In this document: piece by piece, positions 202 to 26,413 of the stretch | How positions within the stretch are numbered: position 1 is the first letter of the stretch | How the letters are laid out: every line of letters begins with the position of its first letter | Position numbers and translations under genes: made by a program | Assembly (NCBI GenBank): GCA_902521465.1 | Contig: CABYRL010000002.1 | Coordinates: 58,777-122,776, forward strand | Reading direction: 5' to 3' | DNA from: an uncultured Alphaproteobacteria bacterium | GTDB lineage: Bacteria; Pseudomonadota; Alphaproteobacteria; HIMB59 | Length of the DNA stretch: 64,000 nt | Notes under the pieces: model-generated | What the model was told of the DNA's origin: nothing | The model's database searches: none | The model's input: only the letters and a program-made list of their open reading frames with translations

Positions 202-678
202 ATGGTTAAAAAGAAAGTTACAAAAAAGAAATCAACTTCTGCAAAATCAAAAAAACCTACTAAGTCAAAAGGTTATCAAGTTGTAGGTGGGGCTAAATTA
301 AAAGATAAGGAAATTAAAACATCAAGAGAAAAAATGATTGGCCAGCATATTGGCTATCGATATGATGTTAACTTAATTCCTGATTATAAGCACTTAACGC
401 CATTTCTAAAACAATATATCGAAATTATGGGTTGGGATGACTTAAATTGGTTAGAGGACATCCATATGGGTTTCGAAGGTGATACCCCTGCTGTGTTTGA
501 CAGAAATGCAAACGCTTGGATAACTTTACCAAAGAAGATTAAACTTCCAAAAAACCAACAAGATAGAGATATGTTAGCTAGAGAACTTTTAATTAAGTTT
601 CAAATGTCACCTAATCATCCCTTGGTACAGTTAAAAAGAACATACGCTAAGGGCGAGAACTTTAAGTTAGTTGAGTAA
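202..678 (+). CDS. Hypothetical protein with Lys-rich N-terminal tail, coupled to mgsC
   Basis: 158-aa ORF; AGGAG RBS overlaps the mgsC stop; globular-looking Trp/Asp-rich core (GWDDLNWLEDIHMG); followed by a terminator hairpin. Confidence 0.75.
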   Translation: MVKKKVTKKKSTSAKSKKPTKSKGYQVVGGAKLKDKEIKTSREKMIGQHIGYRYDVNLIPDYKHLTPFLKQYIEIMGWDDLNWLEDIHMGFEGDTPAVFDRNANAWITLPKKIKLPKNQQDRDMLARELLIKFQMSPNHPLVQLKRTYAKGENFKLVE

Positions 679-725: not shown

Positions 726-1280
726 TTAATCTTTAATTCTTATTAATTTAGATTTTTTCCAGTTTGGAATAAATTTTATAACATCAATGTCATTTCCCAA
801 ACCAGGATTAAAATTTTTATTATGCCAAAAAATATTTTCCCAATGTTCCTCATTTTTATCGAGAATAAAAGGAGAGCATGACAATCTATAATTTGTAGAA
901 AGGTGAATAAAATCTAAGATACATGAGCCGTCTTTAACTACTTTTTTTGAGATACTTGAGTTTTTTGGAAAAGTAGCAAATAAAGAGTCTGAAAATTTAT
1001 CTTTATCCATAAAATATTCAGAAGATAAAAATTTATTCATTTTATCAAATCGATCAGCAGGATCGTAAGTTCGTTTAAAAGTGTGTTCAAACAGTTTTGT
1101 AGTGTTTACAGGATCATTTTCCGAAATTACAACAATAATTCTTAGAAGTTCATTTCCTTTCTTATCAAGCAATATAGGTGCCATAGATGAATTTGGTCTG
1201 CCATTTTGTGTTCTAAATGCCTGAATTCTAGATTGACATTGCCAATCAAGAAACTTTTCTTGTAAAACTTCAGGTGTCAT
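726..1280 (-). CDS. Hypothetical protein downstream of gmaS
   Basis: 184-aa ORF starting 7 nt after the gmaS stop on the same strand (FLDWQCQSR..., FWHN..FNP motifs); function not recognised. Confidence 0.75.
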   Translation of the reverse strand: MTPEVLQEKFLDWQCQSRIQAFRTQNGRPNSSMAPILLDKKGNELLRIIVVISENDPVNTTKLFEHTFKRTYDPADRFDKMNKFLSSEYFMDKDKFSDSLFATFPKNSSISKKVVKDGSCILDFIHLSTNYRLSCSPFILDKNEEHWENIFWHNKNFNPGLGNDIDVIKFIPNWKKSKLIRIKD

Positions 1281-2633: not shown

Positions 2634-2828
2634 CCATTAAAAAAACAATTGAACTCAATCTTTTTTTAACATTAATTAATTTCTTTTGATTTTATAATTA
2701 AGTCAATTAAAAGTAAAATACATAAAAGTACAGGAAAGAAGATTCTAAAAAGTTGTAAAAAGATTTTTTCTCTGTTCTTTTTTATTTTTATAAAAATAAA
2801 AAGTAATAATTAATAAGGAGGTCATATA

Positions 2829-4106
2829 ATGACACTTGAAGAACTTGAATCGTACGTGATGATGCAAGCGAACGTCAGTATGGAAGCTTACTATTGGTGG
2901 TGTACTGCGTTAATGATTGCAATTCACGTAGGTTTCTTGATGTATGAAGTAGGATCGTCTCGTTTTAAAAATGCGGTCTCTTCAGCTACAAAAAACCTTT
3001 TAGCGTTCGCGTTTATGATACCAACTTTCTGGTTATTTGGTTGGTATATTTATCTTGCATTTCCAGAGGGATTTACTCCAATAGCACTTGACGGTTATGG
3101 TACTCCATGGAATGTATCTATGGGGCCAATGTTAAGTGACCAAGCCACAGGTGTTTTCTGGGCAGCATTTACATTATTTGCTTGTACTACAGCATCTATT
3201 TTTTCAGGATCTGTTCTTGAGAGAATAAGAATTAGCTCATTTACTTTCTTGGCTGTTGTTTTAGGGTCTGTAGCATGGATCTTAGCCGCTTCATGGGGCT
3301 GGCATCCTGATGGTTGGTTAGTAACACAATTCGGATATCATGATGTTGGAGCAGCTGGTGTTGTTCACATGGTAGCAGGTTGGTTTGCTTTCGGAGTTGT
3401 CTTAAACTTAGGACCTAGAGTTGGTAAATACAATGCTGACGGTTCTGCGAATGAGATTGAGGGTCATGATCTTCGTTTCTCATTTATTGGTCTTTTAATG
3501 ATTATTGTTGGTTTCTTCGGATTCCTCGGTGGTTGTTTAATCTGGGCAGGTGCAGAGTTTGGTGGATGGATAAACATTTACGGTGCTCCAGCAACATTAT
3601 CATCTTTCGCTTTCAATACCCTCATGGGTCTAGGTGGAGGAATGATTGGTGCATTCTGGATGAGTAAAGGTAACCCATTCTGGATGATGTCAGGTGGTCT
3701 TGCAGGTATATTCTCCTGTGCGTCTGGGCTTGATGTTTGGTATCCAGGATTAGCCTTTGTTCTCGGTTTTGTTGGCGGTGTTATAATTATTCCTGCGAAT
3801 AATTGGTTACACAGTGTTTTCAAGATTGATGATCCAGTAGGAGCTATATCTGTTCATGGAGTTGCCGGTATATGGGGTGTGATTGCAATGGGATTATTTG
3901 CTTCAGGCTATCCAGCATCTGGTGATATTCCTCCAACAAGTTTTGGTGGACAGTTAGTTGGATGTATAGTCATGTTCTTAGTAGGATTTGTGCCTGGTTA
4001 TGGTTTATCATTCATTATGAAAATGATGAATTGGTTACGTGTACCAGATGCAGTTCAAAAAGCAGGTATTGATAGCGCTGAGTTAAATCTCAAGGCATAT
4101 CAGTAA
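2829..4106 (+). CDS. amt: Ammonium/methylammonium transporter (Amt family)
   Basis: 425 aa, multi-TM; HD.GAAGVVH and D.VGAISVHG twin-His motifs; LRV..GID..E...AY C-terminus; AAGGAGG RBS. Confidence 0.95.
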   Translation: MTLEELESYVMMQANVSMEAYYWWCTALMIAIHVGFLMYEVGSSRFKNAVSSATKNLLAFAFMIPTFWLFGWYIYLAFPEGFTPIALDGYGTPWNVSMGPMLSDQATGVFWAAFTLFACTTASIFSGSVLERIRISSFTFLAVVLGSVAWILAASWGWHPDGWLVTQFGYHDVGAAGVVHMVAGWFAFGVVLNLGPRVGKYNADGSANEIEGHDLRFSFIGLLMIIVGFFGFLGGCLIWAGAEFGGWINIYGAPATLSSFAFNTLMGLGGGMIGAFWMSKGNPFWMMSGGLAGIFSCASGLDVWYPGLAFVLGFVGGVIIIPANNWLHSVFKIDDPVGAISVHGVAGIWGVIAMGLFASGYPASGDIPPTSFGGQLVGCIVMFLVGFVPGYGLSFIMKMMNWLRVPDAVQKAGIDSAELNLKAYQ

Positions 4107-4126
4107 CATATAAGGAAGGAGAAAAT

Positions 4127-4300
4127 ATGAATACATTTCCAGGACCTGAAAATAGTTGGGAAGGTGTGGACGCTTATTTCACTTATGCCAACAGTGAAGG
4201 TGCACTGATATTTTGGACCCTTTTTGTTATTGCTCTATGCGTGCTAGTCACTATGGCAACAGCAAGACACGAGTCTGATACTGCAAAAAAAACAAAATAA
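4127..4300 (+). CDS. 57-aa single-TM protein directly downstream of amt (below ORF-track cutoff)
   Basis: AAGGAAGGAG RBS, ATG at 4127; MNTFPGPENSWEGVDAYFTYANSEGALIFWTLFVIALCVLVTMATARHESDTAKKTK*; lies inside the amt transcript, before the terminator. Confidence 0.8.
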   Translation: MNTFPGPENSWEGVDAYFTYANSEGALIFWTLFVIALCVLVTMATARHESDTAKKTK

Positions 4301-4309
4301 TGTATAATT

Positions 4310-4335
4310 TAAGGCGGGGAATTATCCCCGCCTTA
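4310..4335 (+). terminator. Intrinsic terminator of the amt operon
   Basis: GC-rich hairpin TAAGGCGGGGA-ATTA-TCCCCGCCTTA. Confidence 0.8.
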
Positions 4336-4341
4336 TAATAA

Positions 4342-4512
4342 ATGGATTACAACACTTCAAATCTCTTTTTTCAAAATCTCATTCAATCAATAGCTGAAAA
4401 TAAACTAATAGCAGCAGTTATTTGGATTGCATTTATGATTTTTATTTTAAGAAAAATTGCAAAAAAAGATAACGAATTGATTTTAAAAAAGAAATTCTCT
4501 AGACATAAATAA
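4342..4512 (+). CDS. 56-aa putative single-TM protein (below ORF-track cutoff)
   Basis: MDYNTSNLFFQNLIQSIAENKLIAAVIWIAFMIFILRKIAKKDNELILKKKFSRHK*; fills the gap between the terminator and the GATase gene; hydrophobic helix then basic tail; no clear RBS. Confidence 0.55.
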   Translation: MDYNTSNLFFQNLIQSIAENKLIAAVIWIAFMIFILRKIAKKDNELILKKKFSRHK

Positions 4513-5584: not shown

Positions 5585-6982
5585 TTGGGTCAATATTTTG
5601 AAAATTTTAAAGACGCCTTACCTGATGTAAAAAAAGTTAGAAAAATTAAAAAGGATTTAGAAAAAAAAGGCGTAAAATACATTTATTCTAATTGGATTGA
5701 TTTTCTGGGTAGTCCAAAAACCAAGCCTATGCCTATATCTGATTTTGAGGATCTTTGTATGGGTAAAGGCCCTCAATTTGCTGTTCATTCTGTTTCCTTT
5801 GTTCCAGAATTAACTCCAGCAGATAATGATCAAATCCCTGTGCCAGATTTGGATAGTCTCGTTATATGTCCATGGGATAAAACATGTGCATGGGTTTTTG
5901 CAGATTTATATTGGAATGACAAACCTTACGATGTTTGCCCAAGAATGACGTTAAAAAAACAAATAAAGGAAAGCGCTAAATCTGACTTGAAATTTTTTGT
6001 TGGTATCGAACCCGAATTTTTCTTAATGAAGTGGGAGGGCGACAAACCAGTTAAAGCAATTGATAGAGATCCTATAAATTTGAGAAGACAAGCTTTTGGG
6101 TATGACTCAGAGTACTCAATAGATGGAATGCATTTTTTAAAAGAAATAATAGATATTTTAAATAATGATTTGAAATGGGATCTCCATGATGTCGTTGCTG
6201 AGGGCGCATATGGCCAGTATGAATTAGATTTCGGTTACACAGATATTTTAGGGATGGCTGATAGATTTGTATTTTTAAGAGTATTACTCAAGGAAGTTGC
6301 AAAAAAATATGGATATTTTGTATCATTTATGCCAAAGACAACTATTAGTGATTGGAGAGCTGGTGCTCACATTAATCATAGTGTGGCATCAATTAAAAAG
6401 AAAAATAATAACATATATAAGAATGGGAATAATTTCTCTGATAAAGCCTACAATGCTGTCGCTGGAATTTTAAAACATGGAGCAGCGATTACAGCTCTAG
6501 CGTGTCCAACTGTTAACTCATATAACGGATTTGTTCCTACAGTTGAGGGCCTTGATGGTGGCCGTCATACATGGGCTCCTACACACATGACATACGGCAG
6601 TAATAATAGATCAGCTATGATAAGACTACCACAAAATAGATATTGTATAGAAAATAGGGCATCTGATTTAACTCAAAATCCTTATTTAACTTTTTCTTTA
6701 TTAGCCGCAGCTGTTACAGAGGGTATCGACAAAAAAATGAAGCCCCCAAAACCAACTAATAAAAGTCTTTATGATTTGACCGAGAAAGAAAAAAAAGAGG
6801 TTACTACACTGCCAAGAAATTTATTAGAGGCAGTAGACGCTTTCGCTGCTGATAAATTAACTAAAAAAGTTTTTTCTGAGGCTATGATAAACAATTTTAT
6901 TGGATATAAATATGATGAGTGGTCTAGATATCATACAACTACAACTGATTGGGAAATCAAAGAATATCTAAAGTTATTTTAA
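5585..6982 (+). CDS. Atypical glutamine synthetase-family ligase (second GlnT-like paralog)
   Basis: GIEPEFF, EGAYGQYELDF, GAHINHS, NNRSAMIRLP, IENRASD; AGGAGGAG RBS and TTG start; amine- and glutamate-site residues differ from GlnA. Confidence 0.9.
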   Translation: MGQYFENFKDALPDVKKVRKIKKDLEKKGVKYIYSNWIDFLGSPKTKPMPISDFEDLCMGKGPQFAVHSVSFVPELTPADNDQIPVPDLDSLVICPWDKTCAWVFADLYWNDKPYDVCPRMTLKKQIKESAKSDLKFFVGIEPEFFLMKWEGDKPVKAIDRDPINLRRQAFGYDSEYSIDGMHFLKEIIDILNNDLKWDLHDVVAEGAYGQYELDFGYTDILGMADRFVFLRVLLKEVAKKYGYFVSFMPKTTISDWRAGAHINHSVASIKKKNNNIYKNGNNFSDKAYNAVAGILKHGAAITALACPTVNSYNGFVPTVEGLDGGRHTWAPTHMTYGSNNRSAMIRLPQNRYCIENRASDLTQNPYLTFSLLAAAVTEGIDKKMKPPKPTNKSLYDLTEKEKKEVTTLPRNLLEAVDAFAADKLTKKVFSEAMINNFIGYKYDEWSRYHTTTTDWEIKEYLKLF

Positions 6983-7999
6983 TTGATTAGTAAAGAGGAA
7001 CTACATAAATACCAATTAAATAATTTCAAATTAAAATCAGGCGACATAATAGATTTACAATTAAATTATTTAGCATTTGGGAAACTAAATTCTGACAAAT
7101 CAAATGTAATTTTATTTCCTACTAGGTATGCTGGTACACATCTTGAGCAAGGATATCTGATTGGTAATAATTTTCCCATAGACCCAGATAAATATTTCAT
7201 CATTATTCCAAATATGTTTTGTAATGGTGTTTCCTCCTCACCCAGTAATACAGAAATACCCTTTAATGGACCTAATTTTCCCTTAATTACAATATATGAT
7301 AACGTGCAAGCACAATACACTCTTCTAAAAGAAATATTTAACATAGAAAAAATTAAATTAGTTATAGGTTGGTCAATGGGAGGACAACAAGCATTTGAGT
7401 GGGCGTCATATTTTCCAGACATGGTAGAAAATATGATATCTATGTGTGGTCATGCTAAAACCACAGAGCATACATATGTATTTTTAGAGGGCGTATATGC
7501 TGCTTTGACTTCAGATCCAAACTGGAATTCTGGAAATTATGAAAAACAACCTCAAAATGGAAAAACAACAATGGCAAGAGTATGGGCTGGATGGGCGCAT
7601 GGGCAAGACTGGTTTAGGGAAAAAAAATATATCGATGATGGTTACAAAGATGCAAAAGAAGTTTTGGATAAACTTTGGAATAGAATTTATTATCGTAAGG
7701 ATGCAAATGATTTATTAGCGATGATAAGAACTTGGCAAGAGCACGACATAAGCAACAATAATAAATTTAATAATCAATTTGATAAAGCTCTTAACTCTAT
7801 TACTGCGCGATGTATTTTAATGCCAGGTAAAAATGATTTATACTTCCCCCCAGAGGATAATGAAATTGAATTAAAAAATATTAAAAATGGTGAATTACGT
7901 ATCATTCCTTCAAGCTACGGTCACTATGCTGGAGCAGGTAAGTCCAAAGAAGATTTAAATTTTGTTAATGATGCTATAAAGGATATATTGATTACTTAA
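6983..7999 (+). CDS. Alpha/beta hydrolase, homoserine O-acetyltransferase (MetX)-like
   Basis: GWSMGGQQA nucleophile motif, DLYFPP, YGHYAG; TTG immediately follows the ligase stop (TAATTG). Confidence 0.85.
   Translation: MISKEELHKYQLNNFKLKSGDIIDLQLNYLAFGKLNSDKSNVILFPTRYAGTHLEQGYLIGNNFPIDPDKYFIIIPNMFCNGVSSSPSNTEIPFNGPNFPLITIYDNVQAQYTLLKEIFNIEKIKLVIGWSMGGQQAFEWASYFPDMVENMISMCGHAKTTEHTYVFLEGVYAALTSDPNWNSGNYEKQPQNGKTTMARVWAGWAHGQDWFREKKYIDDGYKDAKEVLDKLWNRIYYRKDANDLLAMIRTWQEHDISNNNKFNNQFDKALNSITARCILMPGKNDLYFPPEDNEIELKNIKNGELRIIPSSYGHYAGAGKSKEDLNFVNDAIKDILIT

Positions 8000-26035: not shown

Positions 26036-26413
<378 letters not shown>

Follow-up and report, generated by a model that had tools for sequence, protein, structure and literature searches.

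What is encoded by the short reading frame that directly follows a divergent ammonium-transporter gene in an uncultured alphaproteobacterium of the HIMB59 (AEGEAN-169) lineage, and how is it related to that transporter? The question was raised by a 64,000-nucleotide stretch of a genome of ~1.34 Mb (GenBank assembly GCA_902521465.1, contig CABYRL010000002.1, positions 58,777 to 122,776 of the forward strand). The whole of this stretch is called the window here, and positions are counted from its first letter. Within it, a gene of 57 codons, named sp in this work, lies at 4127-4300 behind amt, the gene for a channel of the Amt family. Based on comparative genomics and RNA contigs, it was considered fairly likely that sp specifies a genuine 57-residue single-pass inner-membrane protein which is the dedicated partner of the divergent Amt encoded directly upstream. 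The parts of the amt-sp unit are as follows.

2691..2719, plus strand: promoter-like site of the amt-sp unit, TTTATA-17 nt-TAAAAT (promoter scan).
2829..4106, plus strand: amt, encoding a 425-residue Amt-family channel of a divergent clade, without signal peptide (PF00909).
4112..4121, plus strand: Shine-Dalgarno (SD) sequence AAGGAAGGAG, read directly, 5 nucleotides (nt) 5' of the ATG.
4127..4300, plus strand: sp, 57 amino acids (aa) plus stop (list of open reading frames (ORFs), homologues, dN/dS, RNA contigs from amt).
4310..4335, plus strand: GC-rich hairpin, likely the terminator of amt-sp, with an 11-bp stem and a 4-nt loop and without a T-run (RNAfold, covariation, RNA depth).

The reading frame of sp opens with ATG at 4127, 20 nt past the amt stop codon TAA (4104-4106), and after 57 codons closes with TAA at 4298-4300; its product is MNTFPGPENSWEGVDAYFTYANSEGALIFWTLFVIALCVLVTMATARHESDTAKKTK. 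An AAAGGA/AAGGAG element was located at the same distance from the sp start in all HIMB59 lineages, and the start codon and the SD were kept. In a search of predicted proteins, 98 clusters proved homologous, with 54-98% identity and, with few exceptions, a length of exactly 57 aa; this length was found in 51 of 54 unique sp alleles. For the 51 unique 57-codon alleles, which came from 65 species-level genomes, the median pairwise ratio of nonsynonymous to synonymous substitution rates (dN/dS) was ~0.22, and the first, second and third codon positions were variable in 33, 31 and 54 of the 57 codons, respectively. Judged by this substitution pattern, sp is a protein-coding gene under purifying selection, and a non-translated ORF is very unlikely given such a signal of coding selection. 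The initial annotation of the window, made from its letters, had described a strong ribosome-binding site, an ATG 20 nt past the amt stop, a polar N-terminus and one transmembrane (TM) helix ending in ARHE, and all of these were confirmed at the locus. It had also described sp as uncalled, which was true of its own ORF track, whereas the NCBI, JGI and TARA gene calls did contain the gene as a "hypothetical protein".

The family to which sp belongs was delimited by profile searches of 1.8 billion representatives. The profile of HIMB59 members retrieved 38 representatives, with distant members at E 1e-10 to 1e-4, and a second, mixed profile retrieved 616 clusters of 54-63 aa, all unnamed. Carriers included Methyloceanibacter, Methylopila, Methylobrevis, Mesorhizobium, Dongia and Thalassospira, as well as Lamprobacter, Thiotrichales, Reinekea, Thiomicrorhabdus and others, and GC-rich genomes were among them. 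The family consensus was M-N-x-S-P-I-x-S-W-E-G-x-x-A-Y-F-T-F-A-D-S-P, a TM helix and (K/R)-H-E. In 68 diverse members, W11, E12, G13, A16, Y17, F18, T19 and A21 were invariant or nearly so, and H48 and E49 were invariant in 68/68. Among the HIMB59 members, the N-tail M-N-x-x-P-G..S-W-E-G-V-D-A-Y-F-T-x-A and the A-R-H-E-S boundary were invariant, and the core of the helix was variable in sequence yet hydrophobic throughout, with the ratio of nonsynonymous to synonymous polymorphism (pN/pS) highest there (0.56). The window sp carried every invariant residue, was similar to the family over its full length and lay directly 3' of an Amt from the clade marked by F103A and S219C. A divergent 57-aa member (MFGFPHDNGGTWDGVEGAVFMGANGG...) was found behind a clade Amt in another genome (G338); it lacked the H-E pair, and therefore the boundary motif is not universal. 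Scans of Pfam and NCBIfam placed sp in no family at E <= 0.01 and returned only noise-level matches for its distant members (for example MgtS-like, E = 1.3), and a profile search of PDB with sp gave chance TM matches only (E >= 0.1).

Transcription of the locus was assessed with contigs from four marine metatranscriptomes of three studies. Complementary DNA (cDNA) contigs started at 2727/2728, 8 nt past the promoter-like site, and one of them was preceded by a template-switch adaptor (TATCAACGCAGAGTACGGG), from which the transcription start of amt-sp was inferred at ~2727. RNA contigs at 3333-4297, 3903-4297, 3858-4297 and 3783-4291 spanned the amt-sp junction, and the summed contig depth fell from 342, 135 and 226 to 0-13 beyond the hairpin, a drop of at least tenfold. 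The two genes form one transcription unit, from ~2727 to the hairpin at 4310-4335, with little read-through. The earlier proposal that sp is the second cistron of the amt unit was borne out in this way, by contigs that cross the junction and stop past sp. Contigs of several libraries ended at 4297 (one at 4291), some with an extra A, at the A-rich run GCAAAAAAAACAAAA (4283-4297) right before the sp stop codon; because these ends coincide with the A-rich run, they are probably the result of oligo-dT internal priming or an assembly break and not true 3' ends.

The hairpin behind sp consists of a perfect 11-bp stem (TAAGGCGGGGA-attA-TCCCCGCCTTA; RNAfold, -20.7 kcal/mol) and begins nine bases past the sp stop. 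It was present at the same spot in every HIMB59 lineage, with stems that differed in sequence through compensating changes, and in several of these lineages a T-run followed it. The consensus terminator scan did not call it, its sole match being weak and inside the sp ORF; lacking a T-run in the window, the hairpin was missed by such a scanner. It was read as a terminator because it is kept with compensatory stems, has T-runs in some lineages and coincides with the loss of RNA depth. The strong terminator first proposed after sp was thus supported by fold, covariation and RNA drop, with the qualification that a T-run and a scanner call are missing. In the ocean metatranscriptomes examined, amt-sp was the best-covered Amt transcript of the organism, and in three of the four it was well covered where the canonical glnK-amtB operon of the same genome was barely covered. 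This coverage is a hint that the organism expresses chiefly the sp-linked Amt in situ.

The evidence that ties sp to its neighbour came from linkage and co-occurrence. Amt was encoded directly 5' of sp in 65/65 HIMB59 species loci with upstream DNA, with a spacer of ~20-33 nt (gap values 24-37), and in all ten distant loci from Alpha- and Gammaproteobacteria (4/4 by protein look-up and 6/6 from a 400-genome sample). Co-occurrence was determined in two sets, namely 400 genomes sampled evenly from the phylum and 61 relatives of the order. In the 400 genomes, the sp profile gave six credible carriers and one doubtful match containing a stop codon, and close relatives of the window Amt (E <= 1e-127) were found in exactly the same six genomes; their Amt identity was 54-60% by genome search and 50-58% by tblastn, and sp was located 2-84 nt behind the Amt in all six. 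Among the 61 relatives, sp stood beside an orthologous Amt (at least 74% identity) in 31/31 genomes, and a single sp without Amt was cut off by a contig end. The initial annotation had expected sp to be conserved downstream of orthologous amt genes and to be specific to one Amt subfamily, and both expectations agreed with the adjacency in near and distant loci and with the exact co-occurrence in the two samples. Because of this adjacency and exact co-occurrence with one Amt subfamily, the auxiliary role that had been suggested for sp is, on genomic grounds, its best reading.

The Amt to which sp is linked was found to be unusual. It matched PF00909 (210 bits, E = 5.6e-62) and stayed below the cut-offs of all NCBIfam Amt equivalogs, among them TIGR00836 (212 vs 343 bits), NF007947 (55 vs 657 bits) and TIGR03644 (183 vs 514 bits). 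It shared 26% identity with Escherichia coli AmtB and 31% with the other Amt encoded in the genome, and it begins with an acidic tail, where the canonical AmtB of that genome has a signal peptide. In a quick maximum-likelihood tree, the clade was set apart from two canonical Amts with 99% support in the Shimodaira-Hasegawa-like approximate likelihood ratio test (SH-aLRT). When 17 small-protein-linked Amts were aligned to E. coli AmtB (sequence from a PDB alignment), F107, W148, D160, H168, F215 and H318, which include the twin histidines and the Phe gate, were kept in 17/17, and F103A, W212F, N216L/I/Y and S219C were likewise present in 17/17; the window Amt has F103A, W212F, N216L and S219C, and the motif GFFGFLGGC. 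In established structural work on AmtB, the periplasmic site that recruits ammonium (S1) is made up of F103, F107, W148 and S219. Since F103 and S219 are changed and the pore residues are kept, the clade has a remodelled outer recruitment site and an intact pore. The window Amt is therefore not a canonical AmtB, with scores below the cut-offs, F103A and S219C, and no glnK neighbour.

The topology of sp was predicted from conservation, charge and modelling, and its product was divided into three parts.

4127..4198, plus strand: residues 1-24, acidic N-tail with the S-W-E-G-V-D-A-Y-F-T-x-A motif, predicted periplasmic (conservation, charge).
4199..4258, plus strand: residues 25-44, transmembrane helix, hydrophobic and variable (AlphaFold2 (AF2), hydrophobicity).
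4259..4297, plus strand: residues 45-57, juxtamembrane A-(R/K)-H-E and a short K/R-rich tail, predicted cytoplasmic (conservation, charge).

The N-tail of the window sp is polar and acidic and carries SWEGVDAYFTYA, and ARHE comes right after the hydrophobic residues 25-44. In the AF2 model of sp alone, computed with a 68-sequence alignment, a helix from 24 to 56 had a predicted local distance difference test (pLDDT) score of 88-98, a short helix at 11-16 was of low confidence and the N-tail reached 53-65, with a mean of 81.7. Across the 68 diverse members, the net charge of the N-tail was -2.4, with K and R almost absent, and K+R was higher in the C-tail than in the N-tail in 68/68. This positive-inside pattern argues for an N-out/C-in orientation, in which the aromatic-acidic motif would be periplasmic and the H-E pair would lie at the inner membrane boundary. 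The part of sp predicted to be cytoplasmic comprises only ~10-13 residues.

A mechanism can be proposed from these features. Once inserted, the protein would expose its acidic N-tail of 24 residues to the periplasm and the short tail rich in K/R to the cytoplasm. Its helix would pack on the lipid-facing surface of the Amt trimer, with specific contacts made through the invariant H-E pair and the periplasmic W-E-G..A-Y-F-T.A motif. Most likely, sp would stabilise or complete the periplasmic vestibule, or otherwise tune assembly or gating of the channel. The vestibule was proposed because the outer site is remodelled and because the clade is found mostly in clusters for the catabolism of methylamine, di-/trimethylamine or ethanolamine. 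In the window, the gene upstream of amt and divergent from it belongs to the type III glutamine-synthetase (GS) family (TIGR03105, 646 bits) and is read as a putative gmaS. The Amt-sp pair may thus import ammonium and/or a small alkylammonium ion, for example methylammonium, and so supply GmaS and the N-methylglutamate pathway; an alkylammonium substrate is suggested by the gene neighbourhoods and by an S1 site that is roomier and more hydrophobic.

A second set of loci bears on how general such a pairing may be. A sister Amt with 43-47% identity and an A103/C219 signature was found in four genomes of the 400-genome sample (G096, G220, G389, G260) and in two HIMB59 genomes (G006, G029), and Y occupied the N216 position in the four sister Amts that were aligned. 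Behind each sister Amt, at a gap of -1 to 24 nt, a different single-pass protein of 68-77 aa was encoded (MSTIGYDSWAVDLAEVGAVYPFQG..helix..WH.. in the four sampled genomes and MATTTYTNYESLADITILSPFPGS.. in the two from HIMB59), with the motif S-W-A-V-D-L-A..A-V-Y-P-F-Q-G, a helix and W-H. No Pfam or NCBIfam model described this family, and in three of the four loci of the phylum sample an mgsA-like gene followed the pair. The 68-77 aa proteins resemble sp in occupying the same slot and in their layout, in which a polar N-tail containing W and Y.F precedes a single helix with W-H at its boundary; their greater length and a cytoplasmic tail of 25-30 residues set them apart. Homology between the sp family and the 71-aa partner family was considered and is not claimed, since the profile-profile probability from hhalign was 1.6%. 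As a different single-pass partner sits in the same slot of the sister Amts, the combination of an Amt and a small protein recurs, and the second family points to a general Amt-plus-partner design.

A bolder view, put forward tentatively, is that Amts of the whole clade marked at the outer site by F103A, W212F, N216L/Y and S219C work only as heteromers with a co-evolving single-pass subunit, whose periplasmic motif sits in the vestibule and shifts selectivity towards methylated or small alkylammonium, and that at least two unrelated partner families (54-63 aa and 68-77 aa) have been recruited. If so, an integral membrane subunit would be described for Amt/Mep/Rh proteins for the first time, and the dedicated system for methylamine uptake that has long been sought in abundant marine bacteria would be identified.

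Several observations weigh against a partner of this kind and against its proposed function. Adjacency and co-occurrence indicate functional linkage and not a physical complex, and translation of sp, its insertion in the membrane and its binding to the Amt are predictions from genes and RNA contigs. No confident docking was obtained when an amt-stop-linker-sp read-through was folded with AF2 (the natural in-frame amt, TAA read as G, an 8-residue linker and sp, with a mixed paired and unpaired alignment; N-tail pLDDT 32-61, mean 67.8); this model is monomeric and topologically awkward, and it joins the cytoplasmic C-terminus of the Amt to the predicted periplasmic N-terminus of sp, so that it speaks neither for nor against an interaction. 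Among solved structures, those nearest in sequence to the window Amt are of the sensor type and not transporters (6eu6 and 8qj3, at 127 and 120 bits, vs 61 for E. coli AmtB). Sensor-type Ks-Amt5 (6eu6), 8qj3 and 8qpf keep the canonical GWFGFNGGS, whereas the window Amt has GFFGFLGGC, and the chains of 8qj3 and 8qpf (644 and 661 aa) extend past the Amt domain, whereas the window Amt is stand-alone and paired with a separate 57-aa protein. The adjacent gmaS was barely covered or not detected in three of the four metatranscriptomes in which amt-sp was well covered, although contig depth is a poor measure of expression and the contigs carry no strand information. Given this in-situ expression without gmaS, Amt-sp may mainly scavenge ammonium.

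Other roles for sp were weighed against that of a dedicated partner. It could be a transient helper of assembly or insertion, acting in N-tail translocation or trimer formation and absent from the mature channel. In contrast to the canonical AmtB encoded elsewhere in the genome, the window Amt has an acidic start and no signal peptide, and its coupling to sp within the operon is tight, as a helper of this kind would lead one to expect. The periplasmic motif and the H-E pair, however, are kept over large distances, which is more like a stable interface, and the helper role was regarded as unlikely.

Alternatively, sp could act with the enzymes of amine catabolism or in their control, for instance by anchoring them to the membrane or as a signalling element, and be connected with amt only through a shared regulon. 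The loci were indeed mostly located within methylated-amine or ethanolamine gene clusters, with gmaS/mgs, tdm/dmm, mgd or eutBC, and the neighbours of four distant amt-sp pairs were as follows.

Methyloceanibacter: mgsC, gmaS, GS-like genes and an alpha/beta hydrolase.
Methylopila: nothing related.
Reinekea: a Tdm-like gene (DUF1989 and GCV_T) and Dmm-like dimethylamine monooxygenase genes.
Lamprobacter: sarcosine-oxidase-like mgd genes, purU and eutBC.

The neighbours thus differ in every distant genome, and in Methylopila amt-sp stands alone among unrelated genes. Moreover, gmaS no longer adjoins in ten HIMB59 lineages, and the amt-sp pair is intact there. Because Amt is the only constant neighbour, a role with the amine enzymes was disfavoured and given a slim chance.

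The initial annotation had imagined sp as a stand-in for an absent glnK, that is, as a membrane-embedded substitute which gates or blocks the Amt according to nitrogen status. There is something to recommend this, as sp fills the operon partner slot usual for glnK, the invariant H-E pair is placed on the cytoplasmic side, the one from which GlnK docks to AmtB, and no P-II genes were found in the flanks of the clade amt loci fetched. The premise was weakened by two loci of the same genome.

Contig C1, 59465-61081: canonical glnK-amtB operon, its AmtB with a signal peptide and the canonical S1 site.
Window, ~26057-26374, minus strand: second P-II gene.

Since glnK-amtB lies elsewhere and another P-II gene within the window, this lineage does possess P-II, and amt-sp is shared by distant Proteobacteria (Methyloceanibacter and Reinekea, for example), in which the presence of P-II is assumed. 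In addition, the best-conserved part of sp is predicted to be periplasmic, its cytoplasmic tail of ~10-13 residues has no recognisable ligand-binding domain and no Pfam match, and the ORF gave no match to PF00543 (P-II). A GlnK substitute was therefore judged quite improbable.

That sp is not translated, being a chance frame in the 3' untranslated region of amt or part of an RNA element, could be suspected of a short gene in an AT-rich genome that is known here from sequence and RNA contigs, and this has a practically negligible chance in view of the low dN/dS with its excess of third-position changes, the preserved length, start codon and SD, the amino-acid motifs that stay invariant though the DNA diverges (54% protein identity and beyond) and the reach of the family into GC-rich genomes.

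The dedicated Amt partner remains the preferred reading of sp, and its surroundings in the window contain the following further genes.

202-678, plus strand: ORF of 158 aa, between the mgsC-like gene and gmaS, no Pfam match.
726-1280, minus strand: ORF of 184 aa, between the mgsC-like gene and gmaS, no Pfam match.
4342-4512, plus strand: second small ORF, 56 aa, with one TM helix and a basic tail, starting 7 nt past the hairpin.
5585-7999, plus strand: second GS-like gene (465 aa), directly followed by an alpha/beta hydrolase gene (NF005757, 425 bits).

Beyond gmaS, the two ORFs are followed by the end of a glutamate-synthase-like gene, and in relatives GXGXG and Glu_synthase genes are found there, in the mgsB/mgsC pattern. 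Genes of 136-138 and 181 aa were called at the place of the 158- and 184-aa ORFs in distant HIMB59 relatives. When the region between gmaS and amt was aligned for the different lineages, no conserved regulator site emerged beyond the SD. Downstream of sp lie the second small ORF, a class-I amidotransferase gene, the second GS-like gene and the alpha/beta hydrolase gene. By gene content, the neighbourhood is of the N-methylglutamate-pathway type. The pair of a GS-like gene and a hydrolase gene also follows amt-sp in Methyloceanibacter, which suggests a further conserved amine-processing module. The ORF at 4342-4512 was conserved in HIMB59 lineages only, at 55-59 aa and with the motif W..(L/F)(R/K)(K/R)(L/I/V)(A/S)K(K/R/S)D(N/Y). 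It has no SD, its RNA depth was 0-13 vs 135-342 for amt-sp, and no counterpart was seen behind sp in two distant loci (Reinekea and Methyloceanibacter).

In the literature, an amt gene has been recorded in methylated-amine clusters (PMC7574528; PMC8292978), and it was called a methylamine transporter in PMC8292978, citing Kamini et al. 2018. The papers found on methylated-amine clusters made no mention of the small gene, and neither the cluster amt nor the small protein was mentioned in the HIMB59/AEGEAN-169 genomics paper or the SAR11 "unknome" paper. The Amt clade sits in methylamine and di-/trimethylamine clusters, and the transporter step is the least defined one of these climate-relevant pathways. 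As amt-sp is the best-covered Amt transcript in the ocean, at least in the metatranscriptomes examined, the pair likely matters for nitrogen acquisition by the abundant HIMB59/AEGEAN-169 lineage. With a conserved, operon-coupled single-pass partner limited to one Amt clade, a much-studied family would gain a new component.

Amt/Mep/Rh channels are textbook homotrimers, and the regulators known for them are kinases or soluble proteins of the cytoplasm. We know of no described membrane subunit of an Amt channel, and sp is probably an undescribed partner subunit of the divergent Amt. GlnK is a soluble, trimeric PF00543 protein of 112 aa which plugs the cytoplasmic exits of AmtB. Like glnK in amtB-glnK, sp takes second place behind the amt gene in an operon of two genes, and its linkage to the Amt is strict across taxa; unlike GlnK, its product is a 57-aa membrane helix without a P-II domain. 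In the archaeon Methanosarcina mazei, the small protein sP36 reportedly modulates the ammonium transporter AmtB1, together with GlnK1 (PMC10714827), which provides a precedent for small-protein control of an Amt. GlnK and sP36 are the known regulators of Amt to be compared with sp, and for neither of them is a place as membrane subunit of the channel recorded here.

With respect to size and architecture, sp can be compared with a functional class rather than a homology family. KdpF (29 aa, in KdpFABC), AcrZ with AcrB and MgtS with MgtA are very small single-pass inner-membrane proteins that bind a much larger transporter, and KdpF is encoded in the operon of its transporter and acts as a stabilising subunit. 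Like these proteins, sp is under ~60 aa and has one TM helix. It shares no sequence relationship with them, and the partner that it would bind is an Amt; it is further distinguished by a conserved extracytoplasmic motif of 24 residues.

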